DNA of 64,000 nt, taken from a virus (Duplodnaviria > Caudoviricetes). A program made the position numbers and the translations under genes. The stretch spans positions 1 through 64,000 of IMG/VR virus record IMGVR_UViG_3300042997_000757. One strand, written 5' to 3'. Below the pieces are notes generated by a model. It ran no database searches. It saw only the letters and a list, made by a program, of their open reading frames with translations, and had not been told where the DNA came from. Of the stretch, positions 12,716 through 50,504 are shown piece after piece. Positions within the stretch are counted from its first letter, which is position 1. Each line of letters opens with the position of its first letter.

Positions 12716-13492
12716 TGTGACGAACGTCACTTAACCATGGGGGGGTGCCTTTCGTCACACCTCGGCGCCTGCACCGTGGGTGCCTCGCCCCCCGTGGCGC
12801 CCTGAGCGCCCCCCAGTGCCCCGTGTGACCTCCGATGGCATGGTTATATGTCACACCCCCCCTCTGTGGCTTGACTGGAGGGGAAATTTGTGCGCAATTA
12901 CGAAAGCCTTATGTTATAAGGGTTTCCCGAGGTCTGAATTTCCCTACTACATGGCGCCACCCTTTGTCAAGTCATAGCGAAATAGGGCGAAAGCCTTATG
13001 GCACAAGGGGTTGAGGGGTGTTGTGACGAACGTCACGTACCTCAAGCCCTTTAAAATAGCGGATATGCCTTTTTATTGGCGCCTAAGGGGGGTTTCCCTC
13101 TGATATTGACTCGTTATCCCCGAGGAGGGGGTAGATCGCTGAGAACGGCGTACAGGGCTGTCTCAGGGGCAAACAGATTATTTAAAGGAAATGTGTGTTT
13201 TCGCCCCTAGAAATGGGGCTATGTGACGAACGACACACACAGGAGGGCGTACGGGGTAGGTATTCCCACTACCTCCCAGCCCCCAGTACCAATGTTGCAC
13301 CTGAGCACCACACATCAGGCGTAGCACCCCCTGTCTCCCCTCCTGTCTCCCTTGGTGAATCCATGGGAGGTCTGTCGGTTTGGCGCCCTTTTCTTCGCCC
13401 ATAAAGCCCTCGGAGCCTTATTCCGTACGGGTTTGAGCCATTTCCAGCGCATACCTCTTATATGCACTTATGCATATGTGACGAAGGTCACA
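12716..13492. promoter_or_regulatory. Five CRP-type operator sites (TGTGA-CGAAnG-TCACA-like)
   Basis: 12716-12731, 12744-12759 (reverse), 13022-13037, 13222-13237, 13477-13492 (perfect consensus). Confidence 0.65.
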
Positions 13493-13545
13493 CCCATGGA
13501 TGCATCCACAATGCGCATTTAATCCATCAGCCGTGCCTACAATGG

Positions 13546-13945
13546 CGCTGGAGGCACATATCCCTCCAGCGGTTGACACCGCTCCTCGGTCAATTAATTG
13601 TTAGGCGCCACGAACGGCAGGCATCGCTCCCGAGGAGATCCGCAAGCAACAGAGGTGAAGGCAACACGGCAAAGTGCTGTGATAACGCTTGCGAAATACT
13701 CCGACCCCTTAGACGACGGATGACCGCAGGAAAGCACACAGCGCCCCGTGGGTGGAGCAACCACCGCTAACAATTCAAGCCTGTCTCAGTGGCAACTGAG
13801 GCTGATCGGCGCTCACATAAAAAGAGCGCCCCAACGCATACCTGCACTTCTCTTCGGATGAGAACTTCTCGGGCAACCCCGAGATGTCAGAGCAACACTG
13901 AGCGCAGGTTCTACGCCTTTGGCGTTTTACAACAAGCAATTAATT
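13546..13945 (+). ncRNA. Large structured non-coding RNA or leader of unknown class
   Basis: About ten helices found by eye, GCAA/UUCG-type loops, G-U pairs on + strand; TACAAT at 13538-13543 just upstream. Confidence 0.65.
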
Positions 13946-13964
13946 CTCTTGAAAGGGGAACGCA

Positions 13965-14975
13965 ATGTCCGCACCAACCATCAACCTTGAAGCCCTCACT
14001 CCTGTTGAGCATGACCTGCTCTACTGCGAACGGCTCATCCTTCTCTCCAACGTCCGCTGGAACCATAAATGTTCATCTGAGAACGTCGTGCGCTACTTCG
14101 GCAAGGACGTCTACTTGCCAACGGGCGAATTTTCCTACGGTCGTGAACGTCACTCATCGGTGTACATCGCACCGAACACAGTGGTTGAGCCAACACACCT
14201 CAGTGAGGCTGTGGTTCTCACCGCTGATGAGGCTGTGCGTCTCTACGAGTTAGGCGTGGCTTGCCACAAGTCGTACCTCGCTGAGTCACTTGCTGAAACC
14301 ATCGTCCAGTTCAAAAAGGACGTGAAGACACTGGCATGGGCTGAGGCGCTCGTCGCTGACTGCGAACTTGAGTACAGCCGACGCCAGTGGGCACGCTTTT
14401 ATCTAGTGACGTCGTCTGACGGTCACATCCACAAGTCAACGTGGTGCTCCACATGCAACAAGGGTCAGTACGCCACCTCGTTCGCCTTGGTGCCTTACCT
14501 GAGTGGTGCAAGCGTCGCTGACGCTGTCGCAGACCTCGGGTGCGCATTGTGCTCGGTGTGTTTCCCCGATGCCCCTGTTGAATCCAAGGAGCAGGTCAAG
14601 ATCAGCGCTCGTGTTGCACTGGTGCTCGCAGAGCGTGGTGTGGAGGCATTCCAAGAGGCACGAGCCAAGGCTCAGGCTGACGCACAAAAGCGTGCCAGCG
14701 ACCGCTGTGAAGGCAGTGGCACTGAGTCTGCAAGAGGCGAGCGCTACGGCTACGCCTGCACGGTGTGTGGCAACACTCAGCGCAACGCTGGCAAGGTGCG
14801 TGCACATCGTCGTCCTCGGTTCTACGCAGTCAAGGAAAACTGGCAGGGGTACAACGACGGCTGGTGGAACGGCACCGACTGGGCACCAAGCACCAAGAAG
14901 TTGGCATTGTCCAGCAGAGAAGAAGCACAAGCCATCGTGGAGGCTCACGGTGGTGACCGAGTCCGCTCGGAGTAA
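13965..14975 (+). CDS. Early hypothetical protein with Cys/His metal-binding motifs
   Basis: GHIHKSTWCSTC, LCSVCFP, CTVCG; RBS GAAAGGGG. Confidence 0.75.
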   Translation: MSAPTINLEALTPVEHDLLYCERLILLSNVRWNHKCSSENVVRYFGKDVYLPTGEFSYGRERHSSVYIAPNTVVEPTHLSEAVVLTADEAVRLYELGVACHKSYLAESLAETIVQFKKDVKTLAWAEALVADCELEYSRRQWARFYLVTSSDGHIHKSTWCSTCNKGQYATSFALVPYLSGASVADAVADLGCALCSVCFPDAPVESKEQVKISARVALVLAERGVEAFQEARAKAQADAQKRASDRCEGSGTESARGERYGYACTVCGNTQRNAGKVRAHRRPRFYAVKENWQGYNDGWWNGTDWAPSTKKLALSSREEAQAIVEAHGGDRVRSE

Positions 14976-14981
14976 TCAACG

Positions 14982-15055
14982 GCATCAGCGCTTCGGCGCT
15001 GGTGCTCACAGAGGGCATCGGGTTCACGCTCGGTGCCTTCTGTGAGCATTCGCTC
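14982..15055 (+). ncRNA. Three-hairpin intergenic element, copy A
   Basis: GCATCAGCGC-TTCG-GCGCTGGTGC; ~17-19-bp second stem; GAGC-ATTC-GCTC. Confidence 0.7.
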
Positions 15056-15088
15056 AACCAACCATTCTCTTGAAAGGGGAAATAAAAA

Positions 15089-15661
15089 ATGAAAACCATT
15101 GAGATCACATGGAAAGCATTCGGTAGACCAACCACCGCCGTTTTCCAATACGACACCGCACTGGATGACCTCGCAATCTGCGCTAAGGCGTTCCGTGAGA
15201 CGAACCTGTATGAAGGCTTCTTGTGGGCATCACTGCAAGCGCAGTTGCCTGAAGAGCGCACACACACGGCGCTGTCGGTCGGTGACGAGGTCACCATTGA
15301 CGACAACACATACGAGTGCCGTGGCGCAGGCTGGAGCAAGGTGGAAGACATTCCACATCGTTGGTGTCACATATGCGAGAACTTTCTCACTGAGTGGAAC
15401 TTGGCGCCTGTCGGGTGCAGTGACGCTCTCAACCGCAAGCGTGTCTATGCGGACGGGGTGTACTTGTGCGACGACTGCTACGACCACTGGTGCACCGAGA
15501 ATGACATCCAGCCCGAAGGCTTCATTGAGCCTGCTACGGCTGTTCAAGAAGACGTGCAGACAGTCCTCAACTGGTTGCCACAAGGCTTCCCCGAGGCTGA
15601 CATCGCCTACGACGCACTTAACCGCTTGGCTGAGGCTCTCGGTCTCAAGCCCTACGTATAA
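15089..15661 (+). CDS. Early hypothetical protein (Zn finger)
   Basis: HTALSVGDEV; CHIC..CDDC; RBS GAAAGGGG. Confidence 0.75.
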   Translation: MKTIEITWKAFGRPTTAVFQYDTALDDLAICAKAFRETNLYEGFLWASLQAQLPEERTHTALSVGDEVTIDDNTYECRGAGWSKVEDIPHRWCHICENFLTEWNLAPVGCSDALNRKRVYADGVYLCDDCYDHWCTENDIQPEGFIEPATAVQEDVQTVLNWLPQGFPEADIAYDALNRLAEALGLKPYV

Positions 15662-15689
15662 CCAACCCAACCGACCACTGGAGGTCAAC

Positions 15690-15914
15690 ATGTACAACAT
15701 TCAACTCACCTACTCAAACACACGCCAAGTCAAGTACCTGAAAGCGCACCTGTTGCGTGGAGGCAGAATCGTCTCCACTCGTTGGCAACAGAGTGCACGC
15801 AGGTTCAAGTCTGAAGCAGAGGCGCAAGAGTTCATCAACAAGGTCAGCCCGTATTTTCACGGTACGTGGACGGCTGTCCCATACACACCCATCAAGCAAG
15901 CAAGCAACGCCTAG
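15690..15914 (+). CDS. Early hypothetical protein; paralog of N-half of 15927-16448
   Basis: GGAGG RBS; MYNIQL..ARRFKSEAEA..GTWTAVP. Confidence 0.7.
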   Translation: MYNIQLTYSNTRQVKYLKAHLLRGGRIVSTRWQQSARRFKSEAEAQEFINKVSPYFHGTWTAVPYTPIKQASNA

Positions 15915-15926
15915 GAGGCACACATC

Positions 15927-16448
15927 ATGAAGTACAACATTCAATTCGTATACACAGGAACACGCCACGACGGCACTTTTTATCTTGCCAACACTGGAGA
16001 CGCTGTGGTGAGAGCATCCACTACACCGCATCAAGATATTGCTAAGAGGTTTGCCAGTGAAGAGGAGGCTCTTGCTTTTGCAAAACGGCATACCAGTAGC
16101 GAAAAGTACAACCCGTTTAGTGTCGGCACATGGACAGTCGTCCCAGCACCTACGAGGTACACAACATCAATAAAAATTGAAACCACCACAAAAGTTGCCT
16201 ACGGCACCGAGTGCGTCTACCTCAAGTACGACGTTTTCACTGCCGAAGAATTGCCATGGCAATGGAGCCAGTTGTCATTGGACGAGAAATACGACCACGT
16301 CAACAACTACTGCCACTGGCACTCAGGTGAGTCTGACATCAGTGGTCAGAATGATTACTGGCTGGAGAACAACCCACAAGAGCACGGCAACCAAACTGAG
16401 GTCGTCATAGAAGTAGTTGAGACATACCGATTAGAGGAGGAAATTTAA
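15927..16448 (+). CDS. Early hypothetical protein
   Basis: TAGGAGG RBS; MKYNIQF..AKRFASEEEA..GTWTVVP. Confidence 0.75.
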   Translation: MKYNIQFVYTGTRHDGTFYLANTGDAVVRASTTPHQDIAKRFASEEEALAFAKRHTSSEKYNPFSVGTWTVVPAPTRYTTSIKIETTTKVAYGTECVYLKYDVFTAEELPWQWSQLSLDEKYDHVNNYCHWHSGESDISGQNDYWLENNPQEHGNQTEVVIEVVETYRLEEEI

Positions 16449-17171
16449 GTGTCTGCATCAACCATCACCGTCAAGCAACAGTCATTTGTGCGCTCGCTTT
16501 TACTGGAGCGCTTAGATGCACTTGAGATCACCGACCTTGACGAGTACATCAAGGCACAGTCCATCAACACCCTCACGGGTCAAGGTGCGAGCAAACTCAT
16601 TGAGGCTTTGAAGAGCATCCCTTGCTCCAAGAAGTCCGAGCATGCACACCTTCCCGAGGGGCGTGTCATCGCCAACCGATACGGCAACAAGTGCACCCTG
16701 TGCAACTCGTACGTGGAGGCTGGCGACGGCTGGGCAGTTCAGACCAGCGCAGGCTGGCGCACCTTCCACAGCGCTGGTCAGTGCGTCACAGTTGACGTCA
16801 GTGCCCCGAGCATTGAGGTCGAGAGTGGCAAGACCTATCGCCTTGAAGACGGCACCATCGCTGTTGCGTACACCACACAGAATGGTCGCCTTGCTTCACG
16901 TCGTCTCATCATTGATGAGGACGGCACAGGGCACCTTGAGTACTGGCAAGGTGGCGTCGCCAAGATCAAGGCGTACGGCGCTCTGCTCACGCAGGAGGAG
17001 GCGTCACGCATTGGTCGCCTGCATCGCTTCTGCGTCTCGTGCTGTCGTGACCTCACCGACGACCGCTCGTTGTCTGCTGGCTACGGTCAGACCTGCGCCT
17101 CTAACAATGGCTGGTGGTACCCCAGCCTCAAGGAGGCGAAAGAAATACTTCAGCGTGACATCACGCTCTGA
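16449..17171 (+). CDS. DUF6011-like Zn-binding domain protein
   Basis: C-terminal CVSCCRDLTDDRS..AGYGQTCA. Confidence 0.65.
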   Translation: MSASTITVKQQSFVRSLLLERLDALEITDLDEYIKAQSINTLTGQGASKLIEALKSIPCSKKSEHAHLPEGRVIANRYGNKCTLCNSYVEAGDGWAVQTSAGWRTFHSAGQCVTVDVSAPSIEVESGKTYRLEDGTIAVAYTTQNGRLASRRLIIDEDGTGHLEYWQGGVAKIKAYGALLTQEEASRIGRLHRFCVSCCRDLTDDRSLSAGYGQTCASNNGWWYPSLKEAKEILQRDITL

Positions 17172-17245
17172 GATCTAGGGGCGTCACTCCCCCGAGACAC
17201 GTCACCTGCTACTGCTCGGCAGGTGCGTGAGTTAAATGGGCAGGA

Positions 17246-17318
17246 GCGTCACCACTTCGGTGGTGGCGTCCTCAGAGGTCATCAGCGTCCTGCTGGTGGC
17301 TTCTGAGGGCGTAAGCCC
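17246..17318 (+). ncRNA. Three-hairpin intergenic element, copy B
   Basis: GCGTCACCAC-TTCG-GTGGTGGCGT; 17-bp second stem; GGGC-GTAA-GCCC. Confidence 0.7.
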
Positions 17319-17357
17319 GAGCACCAACCCAAACCATCAAGCCTTAGGAGGCACACA

Positions 17358-18944
17358 ATGAATGCACACCGCTCCACCCTTGACTCGTTGCTCACGCAAT
17401 TGCCACGAGTCGCCAACGCCATTGTCATTGATCAAGATCGTGCGAACCTCTCAGGTGCGCATGATGCTGACCTTGACTTTGACCTATCACTGCCACTGCT
17501 CCCGTACCAACGTGCTGGCGTCAAGTACATCCTTGAGCACAAGCATGAGGGCATCGGTCACCGTGCACTGCTCGGTGATGAGGCTGGTTTAGGTAAGACA
17601 GCGCAATTAATCGCTGTGGCACTCCATGCGAAGCGCAACGGCAAGCGCTCGCTCATCGTGGTGCCACCATCGCTTCGTGAGAACTGGCGCCGTGAGTTGT
17701 TGAAGTTCACTGCTGGCGAGTTGTCAGTTGAAGTCATCGCAGGTGCCAAGCCATACAAGTTGAGCAACGCTGACGTCATTGTCATCGGTGATGCAACGCT
17801 CGTCTCGTGGGCTGTAGCGCTCGGCAAGGTTGGCTTCGGCTCCTTGCTGGTTGATGAGTCACACCGTGCCAAGAACCCTCGTGCACAGCGCACCAAGGCT
17901 CTACAGGCTCTTGCGTTGACCATTGACAAGGATGGCTACATCGTCCTCGCTTCAGGCACTCCATGCCTCAACAAGCCACTAGAACTTGTCGCACAGTTAG
18001 ACATACTCGGTGTGCTCGCTCCAGTGTTCGGCTCTGCTGGCTCGTTCAAGTTTCGCTACTGCGATCCACAGCCAGTCAACATCGGACGTCGCATTGTCTA
18101 CACATACAACGGTGCGAGCAACACCGCTGAGTTGCACGACAAGTTGCGTGGCACGGTGTACATCCGACGTCGCAAGTTGGACGTGCTCACTGAGTTGCCA
18201 CCAAAGCGTCGTGCTCAACTGGCTATCGCATTGAGTGATGCGACACTGCGTGAGTACAACCGCATTGAGGCAGACTTCCTCGCTTGGGTATTTGACAAGG
18301 GTGGACGTGAAGCAGTGCTCAAGGCATCCAATGCCGAGACCATCACACGCCTCACAGCGCTCTTGCAGGAACTTGGCAAGGCAAAGGTGGAGGCAGGAAT
18401 TGAGCATGTTGAGAGCCTCATTGACGGCGACCAGCCTGTTGTGGTGTTCGCTCACCACCGTGCAGTCATTGACGCATTCATCGCTGAGTGCGACAAGCGT
18501 GCCGAGACAGATCCACGCTGGCGTGCGGTCAAGGTTGTCGGTGGTCTTGGTGATGAAGCCAAGCAAAAGGCTGTAGACGCTTTCCGCTCGGGTGAAGCCA
18601 ACATCTTCGTTGGCAACTACCAAGCCTCAGGTGTCGGTCTCACGCTCACCTCCAGTGGCGACAAAGCATGCACCCAGTGGGTGTCGCTTCAACTGCCATG
18701 GGAGCCAAGCACACTCAGCCAAGCAGAAGATCGCATTCACCGCATCGGTCAGACCGAGTCGGTCACCTGCTGGCACATCACAGCCGTCAAGAAGGACTCC
18801 AGCGAGACGCTGGACGGTCGCTTGTATGCACTGCTCAACCACAAGAGTGAAGTCGTCTCCAGCGTGCTGGATGGCTTCGCTAGTGACCTCGGTGCAGAGG
18901 CTGGTTCAATCATCGCTTCCCTACTTGAAGAGTGGGTCGGCTAA
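17358..18944 (+). CDS. SNF2/HARP-like SF2 helicase (early region)
   Basis: DEAGLGKT, DESH, SGTP, QAEDRIHRIGQ. Confidence 0.9.
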   Translation: MNAHRSTLDSLLTQLPRVANAIVIDQDRANLSGAHDADLDFDLSLPLLPYQRAGVKYILEHKHEGIGHRALLGDEAGLGKTAQLIAVALHAKRNGKRSLIVVPPSLRENWRRELLKFTAGELSVEVIAGAKPYKLSNADVIVIGDATLVSWAVALGKVGFGSLLVDESHRAKNPRAQRTKALQALALTIDKDGYIVLASGTPCLNKPLELVAQLDILGVLAPVFGSAGSFKFRYCDPQPVNIGRRIVYTYNGASNTAELHDKLRGTVYIRRRKLDVLTELPPKRRAQLAIALSDATLREYNRIEADFLAWVFDKGGREAVLKASNAETITRLTALLQELGKAKVEAGIEHVESLIDGDQPVVVFAHHRAVIDAFIAECDKRAETDPRWRAVKVVGGLGDEAKQKAVDAFRSGEANIFVGNYQASGVGLTLTSSGDKACTQWVSLQLPWEPSTLSQAEDRIHRIGQTESVTCWHITAVKKDSSETLDGRLYALLNHKSEVVSSVLDGFASDLGAEAGSIIASLLEEWVG

Positions 18945-18965
18945 CAATCTGAGGTGGTGCTCAGG

Positions 18966-19059
18966 ACGTCACAGAGGCAACTCTGTGGCGTGCCATGGGC
19001 ACTGCGGTGTGGGTCTTCCCCTTTCACAACACATCGCAGTGCTCATGGGACGCAAGTCC
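18966..19059 (+). ncRNA. Three-hairpin element, copy C; loop antisense to the TGAAAGGGGAA RBS
   Basis: ACGTCACAGAG-GCAA-CTCTGTGGCGT; 19-bp stem with loop TTCCCCTTTCA (19016-19026); GGAC-GCAA-GTCC. Confidence 0.7.
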
Positions 19060-19096
19060 AAGCAACCAACTACTAATGCCTTAGGAGGCACACATC

Positions 19097-19477
19097 ATGA
19101 AGACCCATGTACTAATCACAATCACACATCCCGACGACAGCCTTTCAAGGAGCCTCGTTGACTTCGCCGTTAGTAGCATCTTTGATGCCATCGGCGGAAA
19201 CACTGAAGAAGGCTGGGGTGTCACCACGTCCAGTCCGAAAGCACTACAGATCAAAGAACTCGCACTGGCTGTGGCATTGCGCTACCACCTGTCCGACTTT
19301 GACGGTGACAAAACATCCGACGAGACGTTCTCCGCTATCGGGGAGAGTGAAGACATCGTGGTGTGGGAGCCATTTGAAAGATGGGAAAGTTACGAGATCA
19401 CCAATTCAGTATGGAATCTCGCCCACGATATTGAGACAACATTTAATGAAGCCCTAGGTTTGGAGGAATCAGAATGA
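19097..19477 (+). CDS. Early hypothetical protein
   Basis: TTAGGAGG RBS; acidic 126-aa ORF. Confidence 0.7.
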   Translation: MKTHVLITITHPDDSLSRSLVDFAVSSIFDAIGGNTEEGWGVTTSSPKALQIKELALAVALRYHLSDFDGDKTSDETFSAIGESEDIVVWEPFERWESYEITNSVWNLAHDIETTFNEALGLEESE

Positions 19478-19656
19478 AATACACAATTGAAGTTACTGAA
19501 ACAATCAACCACTCATACGAAGTGGAGGCTGGATCGGAAGAGGAAGCGTTAGAAATTTACTACTCGTACGACGACGACCAGTTGAAAGACCTTGATCTTG
19601 ACGGGCAATCAACATGGGATACATCGCCATGGGACATATCAACGGAGGAATCATAA
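19474..19656 (+). CDS. Small DpnD/PcfM-like protein
   Basis: MKYTIEVTE..YEVEAGSEEEA. Confidence 0.6.
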   Translation: MKYTIEVTETINHSYEVEAGSEEEALEIYYSYDDDQLKDLDLDGQSTWDTSPWDISTEES

Positions 19657-19817
19657 TGAAGTACACACTCACCTACGAGAACGTGATCCATCACCGCCAT
19701 GAAGTGGAGGCTGGATCATTAGAAGAAGCACGCAGACTGTTTGACACAAACGAATCAGTATGTGTGGACACACAAGAAACATGGAACACCACCGACATAG
19801 AGGAAGTAAAACAATGA
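19656..19817 (+). CDS. Small protein, tandem paralog of 19474-19656
   Basis: MKYTLTYE..HEVEAGSLEEA; GGAGG RBS, TAATG coupling. Confidence 0.65.
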   Translation: MKYTLTYENVIHHRHEVEAGSLEEARRLFDTNESVCVDTQETWNTTDIEEVKQ

Positions 19818-20077
19818 GCGCTACACACACACATTACTTTGTTGTCTCGTACAACTCAGCAACCAGCAAATGGGAATGGGATACCGAAGCAGAAGAACTT
19901 CATTTCCACGAAGGCACCGTCGTCCACAACGAGACCAACGAGTGGGGTTACGCCTACCTCGGTGACGGTGAGTACATAGACAACGAGGACGAACTGTCCT
20001 CACAACTTGGCAACGCAATTGACTTGTTGAATTGCGGAATCATCCCATCAGACAGAATAATTAATGGAGGTATATAA
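19814..20077 (+). CDS. Early hypothetical protein
   Basis: ATGA overlap with previous gene. Confidence 0.65.
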   Translation: MSATHTHYFVVSYNSATSKWEWDTEAEELHFHEGTVVHNETNEWGYAYLGDGEYIDNEDELSSQLGNAIDLLNCGIIPSDRIINGGI

Positions 20078-20078
20078 A

Positions 20079-20423
20079 ATGAGTGAACTCATCGGATATT
20101 TTGGGGTTGACAGTGGGCAGATCATTATCGGTGATCCTTGCTACCTAGACCAGTTCATCACGGAGGAGTTGTTCAGCGCCGACCTGCCACAGCCTTACCC
20201 GTACTCTTACAACGGTGCGTGCTCTGCAACGTGCTCTAAGAAGGGTGCTGGTGTGCTTGCTAATGGCAATGCAATCGCTGTGTCTACTGGCTACGGAGAT
20301 GGTTCTTATCCCGTCTACATTGAGCGTGACCACAACGGTCGGATCATCGAGATCACGATCTCATTTGATGGCTCACACGAGACCGACGAAGACGAATACG
20401 AAACCGACGAAGACGAATACTGA
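20079..20423 (+). CDS. DUF4241-like protein
   Basis: GVDSGQIIIGDPCY...STGYGDGSYPVY. Confidence 0.65.
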   Translation: MSELIGYFGVDSGQIIIGDPCYLDQFITEELFSADLPQPYPYSYNGACSATCSKKGAGVLANGNAIAVSTGYGDGSYPVYIERDHNGRIIEITISFDGSHETDEDEYETDEDEY

Positions 20424-20438
20424 GCAATCAACCACGGG

Positions 20439-20533
20439 GCATCACGGGCGAGAGTCCGTGGTGCGCTCAGGGTGCATGGGGCTTTTGCCTCCTAAGTTCC
20501 AGTCCCCATGCACTCTGAGGGCACTTACTGCCC
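20439..20533 (+). ncRNA. Three-hairpin element, copy D; loop antisense to the CTTAGGAGGCA RBS
   Basis: GCATCACGGGC-GAGA-GTCCGTGGTGC; 16-bp stem with loop TGCCTCCTAAG (20486-20496); GGGCA-CTTAC-TGCCC. Confidence 0.7.
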
Positions 20534-20574
20534 GAGCACCAATTAACCAACCAACAACGACCTAGGAGGTCACA

Positions 20575-20907
20575 GTGAAAACATCAACCCTTGAAGACAT
20601 CCTTCAACACAAGACAGTGCTTGTTAAGCATGCACGAAAAATAATTAATGCAGATACCTACTGCAACGACATTGATGCGTGGGAGTCACTCATCATTGAA
20701 GACCAAGCCTTTGACTTCAACGTGTTCATATGGGAAGAAGACAACGGAGACGAAGTCACGCACATCAGCGTGTACCCAGTTGAGTTCAAAGACTCCCAAG
20801 AGTATGGCGATACCGACTACAGCACGTACTTACGACTGGTCACATTCAATCCCAAGACAGGCAAGATCACCGACGTATCAAACAACTCCGTGGAGGAAAA
20901 ACAATGA
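20575..20907 (+). CDS. Early hypothetical protein
   Basis: TAGGAGG RBS, GTG start. Confidence 0.7.
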   Translation: MKTSTLEDILQHKTVLVKHARKIINADTYCNDIDAWESLIIEDQAFDFNVFIWEEDNGDEVTHISVYPVEFKDSQEYGDTDYSTYLRLVTFNPKTGKITDVSNNSVEEKQ

Positions 20908-21419
20908 AGAAGACAGCGCTAGACAAACTTAAAAATGGAGACATCGTCTCTCGTAAATATCGTGGAACCATCACTCGCCACGTTGTGACATCACGCACCA
21001 ATTCAGGTACGCACTTTTGGGTGCGAGACCTCAAGTGGGGCGATGATGGCTACTACGACGAGAACCACGACCTCACCGAGCCAAAGTGGTTTGCTGTGGA
21101 ATACATCAAGCGTGTTGAAGAGGAAGAAGTCGTGGCACGAGGTCAATCACAAACCATCGGCGCTTGGGTATGGGTCATATGGAATGACTCCTACAAGCCC
21201 GAGAGCCAGTACATCTCATTCGGCACTGAAGTGTACGAGGGCGAAGACGTCATCTCTGACTCCTTTGGTATCGGAGACGATCAGATCTTCTACTACGCCA
21301 CTGAGCAAGAGTGGTTTGACTTGAATGACGGCATTGAACACAACGATGGCTGGAAGATTGACCTATCAAGAATTAATTACAACATCGCAATCATTATCCA
21401 AGAAGGAGCACTGCAATGA
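20904..21419 (+). CDS. Early hypothetical protein
   Basis: GGAGG RBS, ATGA overlap. Confidence 0.7.
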   Translation: MKKTALDKLKNGDIVSRKYRGTITRHVVTSRTNSGTHFWVRDLKWGDDGYYDENHDLTEPKWFAVEYIKRVEEEEVVARGQSQTIGAWVWVIWNDSYKPESQYISFGTEVYEGEDVISDSFGIGDDQIFYYATEQEWFDLNDGIEHNDGWKIDLSRINYNIAIIIQEGALQ

Positions 21420-21709
21420 ATACCTATGAGAAGACAACCCATTTCCTAGAGCAGTTAGATATCAACGCACTGTCACAGAGCGCAGTGCTCAGTGCAGTCG
21501 CTGACTTCTTTGAACTGGTCATCTGTCCGCACGACAGGCAAGAAGCAGAGAACGTGGCTGGGAGGGCGCTCACTGAAGAAGAGTGGGCGACCCTTCAGAT
21601 CGACATCTACTGGCTCTCTCTTGGCTGGTCAACCGAGGCAGATGTCTTGTCCATCGCAGAAGCGTTGAACAAGCAAGGCATCTCCAGTTCCTATGTACCA
21701 CCCTTTTGA
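21416..21709 (+). CDS. Early hypothetical protein
   Basis: AAGGAG RBS, ATGA overlap. Confidence 0.7.
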   Translation: MNTYEKTTHFLEQLDINALSQSAVLSAVADFFELVICPHDRQEAENVAGRALTEEEWATLQIDIYWLSLGWSTEADVLSIAEALNKQGISSSYVPPF

Positions 21710-21745
21710 TAGATCACTAACCACTCAATGACCAAGGAGGTCAAC

Positions 21746-22324
21746 ATGAATACCGAAGTAGACATTGATGCTCTTGAAGAGCACCTGTGCGTTGAATGCA
21801 AAGAGACAGTAGACCCTGAAGGCAACGACGACAGTCGCTGGTCATCCGTCAAGGAGGACTACGTCTGTTACTCGTGCTATGAGAGTGACATCCAGTCATG
21901 CTCAACCATCCACCTCATTGAAGGCGACCTCGTAGTGAAGATCTACGTTGGCGACCTTGACATCTTCAATGAGTACGGAGACCCCGTTGACGGAGGTCTC
22001 AGGATCAGGCGTGAGTGGGTATCCAGCGATATATGGCGTGGTTACCACAACACAGTCATCGCTGGCTGGGTTGACGTGCTCAGTGGCTGGACGACAGGTG
22101 GCTGGGGTGACCCAGTTGCTGACCGCAAGGCAAACTTCAATGAGTGGGCTGAGGCTTTACTCACCCAAGAGATATATCCACCCTGTTCAGTTGCTATCGT
22201 GACTGACCCAACATCCAACCTGTTTTCAACGGCGATCACTGTTCTCGTAAAAGAGAGAGACGTTAAGTCTTTCCGAGAATGGCTCTCCGACGAATACGAC
22301 GACCTCAATTCATCACTTAGTTAG
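21746..22324 (+). CDS. Early hypothetical protein with N-terminal Zn finger
   Basis: CVEC..CYSC; AAGGAGG RBS before ATG 21746. Confidence 0.7.
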   Translation: MNTEVDIDALEEHLCVECKETVDPEGNDDSRWSSVKEDYVCYSCYESDIQSCSTIHLIEGDLVVKIYVGDLDIFNEYGDPVDGGLRIRREWVSSDIWRGYHNTVIAGWVDVLSGWTTGGWGDPVADRKANFNEWAEALLTQEIYPPCSVAIVTDPTSNLFSTAITVLVKERDVKSFREWLSDEYDDLNSSLS

Positions 22325-22334
22325 GAAAAACAAA

Positions 22335-22586
22335 ATGTCAGAACCAATCAACCAACCACCATTGTGGTGTCGCAACTCTACTTGCCCTGCCACTCACGAA
22401 GCCTTTGATGATGAAGGCGTATGTCAATCATGCGAGACGCACAACATTCTGCGTGAATGGAATATCACTATTCAATTCCCAGTGTTGCGTGCGTACACAG
22501 AAGCCGAGGCGCTCGCACGTTTCATACATGCTGTTGGCACGGACAGCAGAGACATACTCCACCACATCCATGCAGAAAGGGTATAG
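22335..22586 (+). CDS. Early hypothetical protein
   Basis: Cys pairs; in operon. Confidence 0.6.
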   Translation: MSEPINQPPLWCRNSTCPATHEAFDDEGVCQSCETHNILREWNITIQFPVLRAYTEAEALARFIHAVGTDSRDILHHIHAERV

Positions 22587-22588
22587 CC

Positions 22589-23044
22589 ATGAACAACCTG
22601 TTAAATATCAATATCGTCAAGACCGAGGTAGCAACACTGCCATACATCTTGGAGTTCACTAACGTCAATAATTCCCGATCCGAGAAGTACGCCTTTGAGA
22701 ATTGGGACGGCGTGGTGGAGTTCATACAAGATCAGGGGCACTGGTGGCTCAACAATGTAGACGTCAGTCCTTACACCAAGGCGTACTACCGTGGGCGCCT
22801 CAGCGCCTTCTATGACGCCGTTGATGGATGGTACTGCCCGTCACCTCTCTCGGGTGAATGGGCTGGGGAGTCCATCCCTGAGTTGTTGGGCGATCTCATC
22901 AGGCAGGCAGAAGCCACCAGCGACGATGAGTTTGAAGACATAGACCCCAATGAGAAGTCCAGTGCTGTGCTTGACGCATACATCGCTGGCTACGACACAT
23001 ACTTTGTGAAGCATGCTCCCGACCTCATCGAGGTTGAAGCGTGA
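22589..23044 (+). CDS. Early hypothetical protein
   Basis: GAAAGGG RBS before ATG 22589; PLSGEWAGES motif. Confidence 0.65.
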   Translation: MNNLLNINIVKTEVATLPYILEFTNVNNSRSEKYAFENWDGVVEFIQDQGHWWLNNVDVSPYTKAYYRGRLSAFYDAVDGWYCPSPLSGEWAGESIPELLGDLIRQAEATSDDEFEDIDPNEKSSAVLDAYIAGYDTYFVKHAPDLIEVEA

Positions 23045-23208
23045 ACACAATTGAATTCACCAACTGCATTTGGTGCGAGCAACCAGTAGACGGCATCCCA
23101 CATGCAGGTGTGGATGTCAACACCACGCTCGGGCGTGTGTTCGGTTATGTATGCCGAGCATGCGACCGTGCATTCTCAGACCAACCAACGTCCAAGGAGG
23201 ACATTTAA
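23041..23208 (+). CDS. Small Zn-finger protein (55 aa)
   Basis: Manual translation: CIWC...CRAC; GTGA overlap. Confidence 0.55.
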   Translation: MNTIEFTNCIWCEQPVDGIPHAGVDVNTTLGRVFGYVCRACDRAFSDQPTSKEDI

Positions 23209-23209
23209 C

Positions 23210-23482
23210 ATGGGTTACCAAACAGCACTCGGCATTGCCGAGACCGACATCAGCCTTGAGCAACAACTCTCATGGCACTTCACCACCAACTGCTACCCAC
23301 CAGTATCAACACTGATGATTCCACTTGCTGTTGAAGCAATAGACCTTGCCAATGAAGACCTATGGGATGAATACATCTCGTGCCCTGAGGGCGTGACATA
23401 CAGAGGCAGGACGTTAGTTAGTGCCTCAGAAGTTATTGAACATCTTTACCTTTCCGCATTTATTACACAGGAGGAAGAATAA
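23210..23482 (+). CDS. Early hypothetical protein
   Basis: AAGGAGG RBS; WHFTTNCYPPV. Confidence 0.7.
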   Translation: MGYQTALGIAETDISLEQQLSWHFTTNCYPPVSTLMIPLAVEAIDLANEDLWDEYISCPEGVTYRGRTLVSASEVIEHLYLSAFITQEEE

Positions 23483-23715
23483 TGAAAGTCACAGACTGGA
23501 GCAGGTGGCAACGTACGAAAGCACTCACTGCTGGAGCGTTGTTCGCTATCGGAATCATATTGATCGGTGGGCTGGAAGGCGTTGACTTTCCACCCACTAC
23601 CTCATGGGGACTGTTGTGTGGGATCTTCTCTGTGATCCTTTTCAAGAACGTGCTACGCCATGACCAACGCATCAACCCTGACCGATACATCGTTGAAGAA
23701 GAGGAGTGGCAATAA
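23482..23715 (+). CDS. Small two-TM membrane protein
   Basis: Two hydrophobic segments; AGGAGG RBS. Confidence 0.65.
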   Translation: MKVTDWSRWQRTKALTAGALFAIGIILIGGLEGVDFPPTTSWGLLCGIFSVILFKNVLRHDQRINPDRYIVEEEEWQ

Positions 23716-24173
23716 TGGACGCATATCAACAAAAGCAATGGGAAGCCATCAATGCTGTAGTCGAAGCAGGGGGTGGAGTCATGGAACTCTTGAAAGACCC
23801 CATCAAGGTAGAGGTGCTTGATACCCCACAGGCAATTTTCAAGGCAGGTGCGAGCACCAAAGAGGCGCATGGCAAGACTTGGATAATTCCCCAACGGGAC
23901 TTACCCGAGTACTTGGAGCGAGAACTCCTTGCCCGTGGACAGAAGAGGCACGACTACTACTTCATCGCCGTGCGTGAACCAATCGGTGGTCAGGCTGGTG
24001 GTGGTGGGAACATCCAGTTCATCTGTAATCCCTACGCCCACGACGACGGGGTTTTCTTCCGTGTCACCGTCGGCTGTAGGCACACCATGGAAGGTACCCA
24101 ACTGGGTAACTGCTACTGGTCATACAAATGCACCAAATGTGACTACCACTACAAAGTGGATTCAGGCGATTAA
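23715..24173 (+). CDS. Hypothetical protein with C-terminal Zn ribbon
   Basis: GCRH..GNC...CTKC. Confidence 0.65.
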   Translation: MDAYQQKQWEAINAVVEAGGGVMELLKDPIKVEVLDTPQAIFKAGASTKEAHGKTWIIPQRDLPEYLERELLARGQKRHDYYFIAVREPIGGQAGGGGNIQFICNPYAHDDGVFFRVTVGCRHTMEGTQLGNCYWSYKCTKCDYHYKVDSGD

Positions 24174-24182
24174 TTAATTAGT

Positions 24183-24212
24183 TTGCAATATCCGTATTTA
24201 CGGGGATAGATT
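24183..24212 (+). promoter_or_regulatory. Sigma70/SigA-like promoter
   Basis: TTGCAA-18 nt-TAGATT upstream of the DUF932 gene. Confidence 0.5.
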
Positions 24213-24258
24213 AATCCTCGTAACTCAACCAATCAACCAACCAAAGAAAGAGAATACA

Positions 24259-25299
24259 ATGTCCGCAGAATCAGCAGAGGTGCTTAATACCTTCCAATTA
24301 ATTGGATTCACTGACCCGACCTATGGTCGTGGCAATGCATGGCACAACAACCCCGTCTTGCGTCAGCAACTCGGTATTGAAGACAACCACTATGCACACG
24401 CCATCCCAGTAGACGACGTCCTGCGTCGTCTCTTCAACTGGGAAGCCATTGAAGCGCCAGTGTTCGTAGGTGTCCCACACAATGGTGGCACTCGTTACAT
24501 CGCTGACCCTGACCGCAAGGCAATCGTGCGCAGTGATGACGACACCGTCTTCAATGTGTTCAAGTCGGGGTACCAAGTCCACTCATACAAGAAGTGGCTC
24601 TTGGACACCGTGTCCAACATCATTGACGATGACAACCTCGCTATCGGTACCGCAGGTCTCTTGCGCCGTGGTGGCAAGGCATACGTCACGGTGGAGTTGC
24701 CCGACACGGTCAAGACTCCGTCAGGCTTCAATGTCCGCCCACACTTGCTCGCATGCACCTCGCATGATGGCACGCTGTCAACCACCTACAAGGCAATTGC
24801 CACCATCGTGGTGTGCGACAACACCCTTGCTGGTGCTCTCGGTGAATCCACCGCACAGCACAAGGTACGTCACAGCAAGCACAGCATCGGTCGCTTGCAG
24901 AACGTGCGTGATGCTCTTGGCATCGTGCATGAGTTCACTGATGACCTCGTGGCTGAGATTGAGCGCCTGTCCTCACAGGTGGTCACTGACAACGAGTTCC
25001 AAGCCATCATTGAGCAACTGATCCCTGTTGACCTCAGCATTGAGGTTCGCCCACAGGTGCAGGCTCGTGTGCAGAACAAGCGTGAACTCATCCGCCACAT
25101 CTACAAGACAGATGAGCGTGTGAAGGACTGGACAGGCACCAAGTTGGGTGTGCTTCAAGCATTCAACACCTACCAGCATCACTTTGCAGGTACCGACGTC
25201 TCACGCTCGGAGCGCAATGCTTTGAACGCCATCATCGGCAAGGCAGAAGCCAGCGACCGTCTTGTGCTCAACACCATTGACCAACTGGTGTCTGCATGA
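24259..25299 (+). CDS. DUF932 family (phage/plasmid-like TIGR03299) protein
   Basis: TAGLLRRG, LLACTSHDGT, VVCDNTL, KVRHSK. Confidence 0.85.
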   Translation: MSAESAEVLNTFQLIGFTDPTYGRGNAWHNNPVLRQQLGIEDNHYAHAIPVDDVLRRLFNWEAIEAPVFVGVPHNGGTRYIADPDRKAIVRSDDDTVFNVFKSGYQVHSYKKWLLDTVSNIIDDDNLAIGTAGLLRRGGKAYVTVELPDTVKTPSGFNVRPHLLACTSHDGTLSTTYKAIATIVVCDNTLAGALGESTAQHKVRHSKHSIGRLQNVRDALGIVHEFTDDLVAEIERLSSQVVTDNEFQAIIEQLIPVDLSIEVRPQVQARVQNKRELIRHIYKTDERVKDWTGTKLGVLQAFNTYQHHFAGTDVSRSERNALNAIIGKAEASDRLVLNTIDQLVSA

Positions 25300-25598
25300 C
25301 CGATCAGCACCGTGGGGAGGGGGAAACCTCTCCCCACACGCTGGAAGTTTGGTTACCCACTGTGAAGTACATTGACCCTGATAGCGACTGGAGAGAACAC
25401 GCCAACTGCCGTCAAAATGGGAGCACAATGTTCTTTGCTTCTCGTAGCATTAAACAGCAAAAGGAAGCCATCAGCGTCTGCACCGCTTGTGAAGTGCGCC
25501 TCCAGTGCTTGAACTTTGCGATACGTAATGAAGAGAAAAATGGCATATGGGGAGGGGTTAATTTCCACTCCTCCAAGCGCAAAAAAGTTAACAATTAA
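25296..25598 (+). CDS. WhiB-family transcription factor (true start may be later)
   Basis: WREHANC..FF..CTAC.V..QC...GIWGG. Confidence 0.85.
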   Translation: MTDQHRGEGETSPHTLEVWLPTVKYIDPDSDWREHANCRQNGSTMFFASRSIKQQKEAISVCTACEVRLQCLNFAIRNEEKNGIWGGVNFHSSKRKKVNN

Positions 25599-25648
25599 AA
25601 AGACCCACCTTCACTGCGTCATTGCGGTGAGGGTGGGTCTTTTTTTTT
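25598..25648. terminator. Bidirectional intrinsic terminator at convergence point
   Basis: AAAAGACCCACC...GGTGGGTCTTTTTTTTT. Confidence 0.85.
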
Positions 25649-25772
25649 GCTTTATCCCTTGTCGGTGATCTCTTCCAGCAACTTTGGCTTGTCGAGGTTC
25701 TTCTTGCACCTGTGCGATGGTGGGCTGGAGGGGTTAACGAACAAGGTCACCTTCTGTCCACATGACTTGCAT

Positions 25773-48505: not shown

Positions 48506-48919
48506 TTAGTCCGGTAGGAGCCGGATGTCCACTTGCAAGTCATCGTAAGTGGTCTCCTTAGGTGCTGTAGGCGTGTTACTGAGGTGGTCTAGGTTAGCGA
48601 GGAAAGCACGCCACGGTGCAACACCATTAGGCAAAGGTTTACGAACAAGATCCTCTGCAAATGTTTTCATCATGGTACGAATTTCTTCAGGCGTTTTACC
48701 TGAGTCACGTAGTTTCTTTACGCCAACCATGAGTGCTTTCCCATTTACTGGAGAATTAAGTTTACCCCATGCGTCTACAGGCAATATTGTGGCAAAGTAC
48801 CCCACCAACCCTGACAGGGTGTCTTGTCGGGGAGTTTTCTTCGGGGACGCAGTGGCGTGTTCCTTCTCAGGGTCAGCACCAAGGGGGGTACCCCAATCGT
48901 CTGCTGGTTGCTTCCTCAT
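48506..48919 (-). CDS. Hypothetical replication-associated protein
   Basis: Between initiator and loader; C-terminus YDDLQVDIRL. Confidence 0.6.
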   Translation of the reverse strand: MRKQPADDWGTPLGADPEKEHATASPKKTPRQDTLSGLVGYFATILPVDAWGKLNSPVNGKALMVGVKKLRDSGKTPEEIRTMMKTFAEDLVRKPLPNGVAPWRAFLANLDHLSNTPTAPKETTYDDLQVDIRLLPD

Positions 48920-49419
48920 TTGAGCCTCTCATCTACCTCAAGGTCGTCGTACTCGGATTTTCGTTTCTTGGTATGGGTACTCTTATTAATACTCTTATTA
49001 CTTAACTCTTTATTGGGTGTCACCCGTGTCACTAGGGTAGTGTCACCAGTGTCACCACTAGTAGTGTCATGGGTGACACTAGGTAGTGTCATGGGTGTCA
49101 CTACCCCTAAGGCTTCAGGGTTATTGAAGTTGATGATAAAGGCATTGGACATGTTCCGATTATTGGTGCCTCGGTGGCGTCGTACAAGCACCCCAGTAGC
49201 CACTAAACGGTTGACCGCACGAATAACCGTTCGCCTATCAACGCCCACCTGTTCAGCGATGTACTGGTAGGACGTTGTCGTGGTCTGTGTCTCGGGCTTC
49301 ATGTAGACGAGGAGTTCAAGAAGGACGGCTTTAGCAGTTGAGTCGTTCTTCAGATACGGGAGTACCCATCGAGGAAACCCTAGGAAGGCCCCCCCAAATT
49401 TTGTGGCTGGTTTGCTCAT
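48916..49419 (-). CDS. HTH replication initiator-like protein
   Basis: SYQYIAEQVGVDRRTVIRAVNRL..G; internal DNA repeats; GGAG RBS. Confidence 0.75.
   Translation of the reverse strand: MSKPATKFGGAFLGFPRWVLPYLKNDSTAKAVLLELLVYMKPETQTTTTSYQYIAEQVGVDRRTVIRAVNRLVATGVLVRRHRGTNNRNMSNAFIINFNNPEALGVVTPMTLPSVTHDTTSGDTGDTTLVTRVTPNKELSNKSINKSTHTKKRKSEYDDLEVDERLK
49017..49106. repeat. Iteron-like GTGTCA(C/T) cluster; candidate replication origin
   Basis: Seven direct GTGTCA copies plus one inverted TGACAC in ~90 bp inside the initiator gene, beside an AT-rich tract. Confidence 0.7.
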
Positions 49420-49469
49420 TTATTGCTCCATTGTTTGCGACTGTGGAATGACGATGATACACTGCTTTT

Positions 49470-49595
49470 GCTGTCATGTACACCTACTTGAGTGTAAGTA
49501 CGGTGTGATAGTACCTCCATTGGTTGGTCCCTTTGGTTGGTTGCTCAGGTAAATGGCTGGATATGGCAGAAACTGTATCCAGCCATTTGCTGTTT
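49470..49595 (+). ncRNA. Putative sRNA antisense to early-gene leaders
   Basis: TGn-TACACT at 49455-49463; 5' hairpin; unpaired CCTCCATTGGTTGGT..CTTTGGTTGGTTG; 3' long hairpin 49546-49592 with G-U pairs on + strand. Confidence 0.6.
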
Positions 49596-49612
49596 ATAGG
49601 GTAAAATAGGGC

Positions 49613-49789
49613 ATGGCTGAAAAGAAACCCACCAAAAAAGAAGTATGGGACACACCAGACCCTTCTAAAAAAGATAAGAAGTTGACTCCTGAACAAAAGT
49701 CTGAAGCAAAATCTCGTGCTAAAAAAGCAGGACGTCCTTACCCAAATCTTGTAGACAATATGGCTGTGTCCAAGAAAGGAAAGAAGTAA
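49613..49789 (+). CDS. Small basic protein (58 aa)
   Basis: Manual translation ..AKKAGRPYPNLVDNM..; TAAAAT 5 nt before ATG. Confidence 0.7.
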   Translation: MAEKKPTKKEVWDTPDPSKKDKKLTPEQKSEAKSRAKKAGRPYPNLVDNMAVSKKGKK

Positions 49790-50070
49790 TGGCTGCCAAG
49801 AAATCTGATGCGTGGCAACGCAAAGAAGGAAAGAACAAAGAGGGTGGGCTAAACGAAAAAGGACGCAAGTCTTACGAAAAAGCCAACCCCGGCAGTGACC
49901 TTAAGCCTCCTGTATCTAAAGAACAGGCTAAGAAGTCTCCTAAGTCTGCCGCTCGTCGTGATTCTTTCTGTGCTCGCATGGAAGGTATGAAGAAGAAAAA
50001 CACTTCATCTAAAACTGCAAATGATCCTGATTCTCGTATTAACAAGTCTCTTAAAAAGTGGGACTGCTAA
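49789..50070 (+). CDS. DUF6321-like basic protein
   Basis: WQRKEGKN.EGGLN.KGR..SFCARM..WDC. Confidence 0.75.
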   Translation: MAAKKSDAWQRKEGKNKEGGLNEKGRKSYEKANPGSDLKPPVSKEQAKKSPKSAARRDSFCARMEGMKKKNTSSKTANDPDSRINKSLKKWDC

Positions 50071-50504
50071 TGAGCGCTCTTACCAATGACCTTAAAACCC
50101 TTTTGGCTGACTCTGTCACAATGTATTTTGTTGCACATGGTTATCATTGGAACGTAGAAGGTTCTGACTTTAGTCAGTACCATGCACTCTTTGCAGAAAT
50201 TTATGAAGATGTCTACAGCGCTATTGATCCTTTGGCAGAAGATTTACGCAAACTAGATGAGTATGCACCTTTTACTTTGAGCAAGTTTATTGATCTTAGA
50301 ACAGTTGAAAGTGTTGAAGTAGCACCTAATCCTAAAGCAATGGCAAAAGCCTTGCTAAAGGTTAATCAAGGTGTTCTTGAAACCATCAGCAAGGCTTTTG
50401 TTTCGGCTAATAAAGCCAATGAGCAGGGTATTGCTAACTTTCTCGCAGAGCGAGACAACATGCACAAGAAGTGGGCATGGCAACTAACTGCTTCAACTAA
50501 GTAG
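50070..50504 (+). CDS. dps: Dps/ferritin-like DNA-protection protein
   Basis: HGYHWNVEG.DF..YH.LF..IYED..D.LAE; HKKWAWQL. Confidence 0.9.
   Translation: MSALTNDLKTLLADSVTMYFVAHGYHWNVEGSDFSQYHALFAEIYEDVYSAIDPLAEDLRKLDEYAPFTLSKFIDLRTVESVEVAPNPKAMAKALLKVNQGVLETISKAFVSANKANEQGIANFLAERDNMHKKWAWQLTASTK

Follow-up and report, generated by a model that had tools for sequence, protein, structure and literature searches.

Only a few cultured phages, of enterobacteria, Vibrio, Pseudomonas, and staphylococci, are known to encode regulatory RNAs, and the small RNAs (sRNAs) with C-rich loops of the 6C and RsaE type belong to Hfq-less Gram-positives and actinobacteria. The OOP RNA of phage lambda, which forms two hairpins, begins beside the start codon of O and runs away from it, and the promoter pO matters for replication control independently of priming (PMC12197685). 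The sRNAs PreS and VpdS are Hfq dependent and best known for their host targets, and the review from which these details are taken makes no mention of actinobacteria or mycobacteriophages (PMC12197685).

The locus described here, like that of OOP, lies beside a replication initiator gene. The window, that is, the whole stretch of 64,000 nt that was analyzed, comes from one phage contig of 94,926 bp, of which it takes up the first 64 kb, and the genes flanking the intergenic region from 49420 to 49612 are divergent (Table 1). Leftward, on the - strand, the replication operon consists of the O-like initiator, an unknown gene, a DnaC-like loader, and a DnaB-like helicase; rightward, three small genes (49613 to 50504) encode a PHROG 34011 protein, a DUF6321 protein, and a Dps/ferritin-like protein. 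The initiator protein had no match in the phage collection searched for cultured relatives. In this collection, the best matches of the DnaB-like and DUF932 proteins were found in phages of Streptomyces, Rhodococcus, Gordonia, and Mycobacterium, at 25 to 42% identity only, so that the host is probably an actinobacterium. The ACCAACC repeats were ruled out as iterons, the actual iterons being the GTGTCAC repeats within the initiator gene, which are likely the origin of replication and lie about 350 nt from the sRNA promoter.

Table 1. Positions of the predicted sRNA, its surroundings, and its candidate target leaders in the window
Feature	Position	Strand	Basis or remark
O-like replication initiator gene, HTH_36	48916..49419	-	Matches O-like PHROGs
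Four ~22-bp iterons, eight GTGTCAC half-sites, tandem, partly palindromic	49017..49105	.	Inside initiator gene
-35-like TTGCGA, within the initiator's leader DNA	49435..49440	+	TTG core kept in class A
Extended -10, TG-A-TACACT	49455..49463	+	Conserved over ~45 loci
Predicted small RNA, ~128 nt	49470..49597	+	Start inferred from -10, end from hairpin and U-rich tail
5' hairpin	49470..49512	+	Fold; equivalent hairpin in relatives
Weakly structured seed region	49513..49547	+	Fold, class A conservation
Anti-SD-like ACCTCC	49513-49518	+	In seed region
Conserved single-stranded linker TTGCTCA	49541-49547	+	3' part of seed region
19-bp terminator-like hairpin	49548..49591	+	Structure kept, sequence changes in relatives
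G-TTTAT tail	49592-49597	+	Directly 3' of long hairpin
TAAAAT -10, 5 nt before rightward gene's ATG	49602..49615	+	Class A sequences
Candidate target leader, gene at 15089	15055..15083	+	Seed match
Similar leaders	15660-15689, 19061-19096, 20533-20574, 23179-23209	+	Seed matches
Candidate target, SNF2 helicase leader	17318..17357	+	Short tetraloop hairpin, then GAGCACCAAC, then SD
Candidate target, 13-nt perfect complement in DUF932 leader	24234..24246	+	Pairs with 49531-49543

A search with the initiator protein gathered about 45 related loci, which fall into two layouts. In class A, to which the window belongs, the initiators are 55 to 97% identical and the neighbor gene is divergent; in the more distant class B, the initiators are 42 to 58% identical and the upstream gene is codirectional, ending just before the element. 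The related contigs bear IMG/VR and JGI metagenome names. Within class A, most loci with a close start codon for the rightward gene present the TAAAAT box at 5 to 9 nt, mostly 6, from the ATG, and the gene has no Shine-Dalgarno (SD) sequence; its start lies about 40 to 60 nt downstream in loci L018 and L025, and no rightward gene is found nearby in L006 and L007. This arrangement suggests that the rightward gene is probably transcribed from a promoter of its own into a leaderless mRNA, which would fit an actinobacterial host. In L001, the RNA, the TAAAAT promoter, and the first two codons are kept, and the gene behind them differs.

In the intergenic region of the window, we found all the elements that a preliminary description of this DNA had pointed out, namely, the extended -10, a hairpin at the 5' end, a long one at the 3' end, and a weakly paired stretch between the two. 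The predicted fold of the complete RNA has an energy of -52.6 kcal/mol (z = -4.8), and the seed region contains two TTGGTTGG repeats. The wobbles of the long hairpin had been described as G-U on the + strand; four such pairs occur in the window, owing to which the + strand fold is better than the - strand fold by 6.5 kcal/mol, and in all relatives they fall on the same strand. The T run after this hairpin is short, and a simple terminator scan called none, while the only ATG open reading frame (ORF) inside the RNA has about 10 codons. Rfam gave no relevant match for the window region at E values up to 1 and none for five class B loci at E values up to 0.1; two weak matches to miRNA models at 49031 to 49111 correspond to the iteron palindromes.

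As for the promoter, the TTGCGA sequence sits 17 nt upstream of the -10 hexamer in the window, and the TTG core occurs 16 to 18 nt upstream of the hexamer in all class A loci, the general form in the related loci being TTG-N16-18-TGnTAnAnT. Over the approximately 45 loci, the TG is conserved, as are the T and A with which the hexamer opens and the T with which it closes, and the n (A, C, G, or T, depending on the locus) and the inner bases of the hexamer vary; the exception is represented by the subgroup of L005, L013-15, L022, and L024, where the T of TG is lost and GG is present instead. If the conserved 9-mer were read on the opposite strand, that of the initiator, the last base of the hexamer would vary among T, A, C, and G, which a -10 box does not tolerate; the conservation pattern fits the + strand only. 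In the related loci, the promoter lies 36 to 45 nt (about 40 nt) upstream of the initiator ATG and is directed away from the initiator. It looks like an ordinary host-type promoter, which could be active from the onset of infection; the middle or late timing and the place in a cascade that the preliminary description had proposed find no support here. The conserved 10-mer of class A was also considered as a coding sequence (Ser-Val-Ser-Ser in several - strand ORFs), a possibility that was rejected since neither the flanking codons nor the frames are conserved.

The RNA gene is conserved in some thirty related uncultured phages, and its architecture recurs in 12 distinct class A loci, whose folds comprise 372 pairs (63 of them G-U) on the RNA strand versus 310 pairs (8 G-U) on the opposite one. 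In all 12 of them the whole RNA is more stable on the RNA strand, by 8 to 20 kcal/mol, and in the relatives the long hairpin alone favors the + strand by 6 to 19 kcal/mol, with double changes at 9 of its 13 aligned pairs. The 5' hairpin shows compensatory changes between L010 and L011 and G-U pairs on the + strand only. In the short class A forms (75 to 90 nt), the 5' hairpin has an invariant 3' arm and a variable 5' arm, the pairing of which is held through G-U, and its loop is pyrimidine rich, with CCUCC in most cases; a linker of 6 to 8 nt follows (UUGCUYAG in most loci), and then the long hairpin and G-UUUAU. The longer form, present in the window, L001, L004, and L006/7, features an extra 5' hairpin and a duplicated UUGGUUGG. 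As regards the seed, conservation extends to the relatives: UGUUGGUUGCU is kept in class A, the linker is unpaired in all 12 folds, and TGTTGGTTGCT or a near variant of it is present in every class A locus.

In class B (see, for example, L027:2870-2970, on the - strand of the locus), the RNA opens with a small hairpin, which is followed by a long, bulged one, and it runs towards the stop codon of the codirectional upstream gene and ends about there. The long hairpin pairs in 219 of 221 aligned cells on the RNA strand versus 190 on the other strand, with 29 G-U cells and 0 A-C cells on the RNA strand and double compensatory changes at 9 of 17 pairs. Its apical loop of 17 to 18 nt contains ACCUCCUUUC; of the 16 loci extracted, 15 carry it intact, and L026 has one inserted C. 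We take this motif to match, letter for letter, the anti-SD tail of the 16S rRNA of Gram-positive bacteria and actinobacteria. Moreover, an IMG/VR scan with the RNA motif by itself returned 16 stretches, 9 of which are structured and all lie beside this initiator family; the other 7, without hairpins and without the initiator, are chance matches.

The locus is thus a conserved, strand-specific structured element with a promoter, and three independent lines, the promoter pattern, the wobbles of class A, and those of class B, place the RNA on the + strand, antisense to the initiator. The preliminary description had likewise proposed a + strand sRNA, and its alternative, a - strand leader only, is disfavored by the promoter conservation and by all the wobble pairs. 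On the grounds of sequence and fold, we consider it highly probable that the small RNA gene is real, and very likely that it is a discrete + strand gene with its own promoter and a terminator-like hairpin.

Regarding the possible partners of the RNA, the perfect 13-nt complementarity that had first drawn attention to the locus, between 49531-49543 and the leader of the gene at 24259 (confirmed to encode a DUF932 protein), is present, but a match of this length somewhere in the 95-kb genome is obtained with 10% of the dinucleotide shuffles of the seed (P ~0.10), and thus it proves nothing alone. The other pairings that had been listed also occur: one of 16 nt with 15668-15683, before gene 15690, contains one mismatch and one G-U when checked by hand, and matches of 9 to 10 nt are found in the leaders at 15055, 19061, 20545, and 23179. 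When complements of 9 nt or more to the seed (here 49511-49548) were counted within 45 nt upstream of SD-preceded starts, we obtained 12 versus 2.3 expected (0 of 200 shuffles reached this number) and 4 in the reverse-complement control. Furthermore, CAACCAA is the top enriched non-SD 7-mer in the leaders of this genome and of two relatives. The order of the elements also fits a pairing, since the leaders present AGCAACCAAC and, about 10 to 20 nt later, GGAGG, and in the RNA CCUCC comes first and UUGGUUGCU second. In addition, the SD region of the initiator itself (49426-49437) is complementary in 11 of 12 positions to the RNA at 49515-49526.

The preliminary description had gone on to propose that early genes are repressed through their shared leader. 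In this genome, with the seed alone, the start regions of the GC-rich + strand block (13.4 to 25.7 kb) are better partners than the other start regions by 3.8 kcal/mol (Mann-Whitney P = 7e-4; shuffled seeds, -0.16 +/- 1.0, 0 of 40), in terms of duplex energies that ignore accessibility. With the whole RNA bodies, for which unrestricted duplex folding is too permissive, the duplex energies of each RNA against all start regions showed no preference for the RNA of the own genome. The leaders are generally A/C rich, and GGAGCAAC is a common form of the ribosome binding site (RBS) in these genomes, so that part of the complementarity may be compositional. 

The + strand block from 13400 to 25700 has a G+C content of 49 to 56%, versus 40 to 49% across most of the remaining genome; four relatives show this local rise as well in their orthologous blocks, and thus it is a property of the module rather than the trace of a recent insertion. 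In the early operon (17300-17330, 19045-19070, and 20518-20545), we could also notice a tetraloop hairpin, e.g., GGAC-GCAA-GTCC, directly followed by (A/G)AGCA(A/C)C(C)AAC and then by the SD. The pair of hairpin and word is kept in the orthologous intergenic regions of five genomes, the leaders of G001-G004 included, and looks like a conserved RNA signal, which could be a processing site or the site of a protein or of an sRNA.

The comparison of targets was extended to the window genome plus four relatives, fetched whole or in large part. Of the proposed action on early leaders, what holds is the preference for the early block in this genome; as a class effect it is weak in the four relatives, where early and other start regions differ by only about 1 kcal/mol, in most cases without significance. 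The orthologous DUF932 leaders of the compared relatives do not preserve the 13-nt match, and in the four relatives a degenerate 9-mer, with one mismatch allowed, was no commoner than its reversed control. The SNF2 helicase leader persists: it ranks 4 of 166 here, and its orthologues, confronted with their own RNAs, rank 32 of 153, 1 of 171, 1 of 115, and 13 of 203, this leader being among the top matches in four of the five genomes compared.

The RBS of the own initiator, which the preliminary description had not considered, is a further recurrent candidate, to which the RNA is complementary over 11 nt in L003 and 10 in L005, in addition to the 11 of 12 in the window. In class B, the match covers 13 nt (with G-U) in L020/L042, 10 in L026, and 11 in L028, always in the loop of the first hairpin. 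No significant match to the own initiator RBS was found in L010, L011, L018, L025, L032, L034, L037, and L046. The complementary sequences differ from lineage to lineage, as would be expected if a pairing coevolved. The case for early genes as a class being the main targets is weaker, and the initiator and the SNF2 helicase appear at least as likely.

It is possible to hypothesize that the locus produces a conserved, independently transcribed + strand RNA that acts by pairing with phage leaders, a mechanism that is better supported than the others considered and for which, on present comparisons, we judge the case evenly balanced. We infer that transcription would start from the host-type extended -10 and proceed from about 49470 to about 49597, away from the initiator gene, ending at the long hairpin with its poor U tail. 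Between the 5' hairpin and the terminator, the RNA would expose the anti-SD-like CCUCC and the conserved UUGGUUGCU, with which it could pair with the A/C-rich leader and the SD of phage mRNAs and lower their translation. Candidate partners would be the RBS of the initiator itself and the leader of the SNF2 helicase gene, to which several other genes from the GC-rich + strand block would be added in this phage. A more ambitious version, which we offer only tentatively and hold to be rather doubtful, is that of a family of "anti-leader" RNAs in the position of OOP, probably in actinobacterial phages, in which a mimic of the 16S anti-SD is joined to a seed that reads AGCAACCAAC, so that one RNA could both reduce translation from the early operon and control the amount of initiator.

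A different explanation accepts the RNA as real and assigns the function to the act of transcription or to the promoter, which, like pO of lambda, would modulate replication or compete with the promoter of the initiator, the complementarity with the leaders being incidental. The invariant position beside the initiator and the proximity of the iterons agree with it, and so does the role of pO in lambda, which is stated to be independent of priming (PMC12197685). Moreover, the conserved 10-mer of class A is the exact union of the + strand TGnTACACT and the - strand TATCAT, the latter being called as a - strand promoter by the scan and overlapping the + strand -10 by two bases. However, a promoter effect leaves unexplained the compensatory changes in the hairpins, the invariant single-stranded stretch of 9 to 11 nt in class A, and the nearly invariant 10-nt loop sequence in class B, and we regard it as unlikely.

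The loops could also be directed to the host: with their CCUCC-type sequences, they would mimic the 3' tail of 16S rRNA and bind host SD sequences or titrate a host factor. The apical loop of class B, with ACCUCCUUUC almost throughout, and the CCUCC in most 5'-hairpin loops of class A speak for such a decoy or host-directed pairing; class A, however, also keeps UUGGUUGCU, which matches a word of the phage leaders, and this explanation seems to us quite improbable.

According to another explanation, there would be no small RNA, and the region would be the - strand 5' leader of the initiator operon, a copy of the arrangement hairpin, AGCAACCAAC, SD, whose complementarity to the other leaders follows from the opposite orientation of the operon. 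All six AACCAACC copies are indeed sense to the downstream gene, in the early intergenic elements GAGCA(A/C)CCAAC comes after a hairpin, and the same letters, on the - strand of this locus, read as a typical leader; L006 and L007 even read SD-ATG in frame with the initiator. On the other hand, the early hairpins are 11 to 17 kcal/mol more stable on the sense strand, and at this locus it is the antisense strand that gives the more stable hairpins, in all relatives, so that the locus is not simply an inverted copy of the early elements. Neither does a conserved - strand promoter lie upstream, the conserved 9-mer fits a + strand -10, and the 34-codon - strand ORF of the window is absent from L001, which is 97% identical, all of which makes a mere leader very improbable. 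In L006 (2896-3030) and, at the same coordinates, in L007, the - strand presents a strong SD, five bases, and an in-frame ATG that adds 26 codons; this frame may be open by chance or may encode a longer alternative form of the initiator, which would overlap the RNA gene.

That the + strand transcript instead serves the rightward genes as an attenuator or 5' untranslated leader would agree with the shared orientation, with the distance of only 16 nt, and with a weak U tail that could permit read-through, but we give it hardly any credence in view of the separate leaderless promoter that the TAAAAT box and the lack of an SD indicate in most class A loci, of class B, which lacks the rightward gene, and of L001, which keeps the RNA though its downstream gene differs.

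The RNA represents a structurally well-supported family, absent from Rfam and tied to the replication module of a group of presumably freshwater phages of about 70 to 95 kb. If the pairing with the initiator RBS and the early leaders is true, the position of pO and OOP in lambda would be a recurrent site for RNA control of replication timing, and, if the RNA is an "anti-leader," it would represent an RNA-based temporal switch in a host group without Hfq. It would also offer a concrete case of a phage RNA that regulates the early genes of the phage itself, testable by compensatory mutation.

With respect to known systems, lambda OOP is similar in being a small two-hairpin RNA (77 nt in lambda versus 75 to 130 nt here) transcribed away from an O-type initiator gene, from a promoter directly upstream of that gene, and the four ori iterons inside the O gene correspond to the four inside the initiator gene here. 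Different from OOP, which acts in cis as an antisense RNA and covers the 3' end of the convergent gene cII, the RNA of the window and of class A has a divergent neighbor, so that no gene is overlapped, and the class B RNA ends about at the stop codon of the upstream gene. Furthermore, a single-stranded seed and loops resembling an anti-SD are conserved in the RNA described here, unlike in OOP, and its host is probably an actinobacterium and not an enterobacterium. No sequence relationship was seen, as judged from Rfam scans without a relevant match. Since the cis-antisense overlap with the upstream gene that defines OOP is lacking in the window, the RNA is OOP-like in position only and is not filed as OOP.

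The trans-acting phage sRNAs (PreS of lambda and VpdS of VP882) and the sRNAs with C-rich loops of the 6C and RsaE type share with this RNA an independent gene that has a promoter and a 3' end of its own, a short conserved seed, pyrimidine-rich loops, and a predicted pairing at or beside RBSs. Different from PreS and VpdS, the predicted partners here are leaders of the phage itself, and, different from all of these sRNAs, the RNA has no homology to any Rfam family.

Finally, the plasmid countertranscripts (CopA of R1, with its tap leader peptide, and RNA I of ColE1) overlap their target in antisense, whereas here the RBS of the initiator lies outside the RNA gene and only 8 to 13 nt are matched. 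As a counterpart of tap, we considered the 34-codon ORF, the stop of which overlaps the initiator ATG, and discarded it, given its absence from L001 and the lack of a consistent counterpart elsewhere. What the plasmid systems and this locus have in common is a small structured RNA beside an initiator gene, complementary to the translation initiation region of that gene, and, by analogy, the phage RNA could set the level of its initiator.
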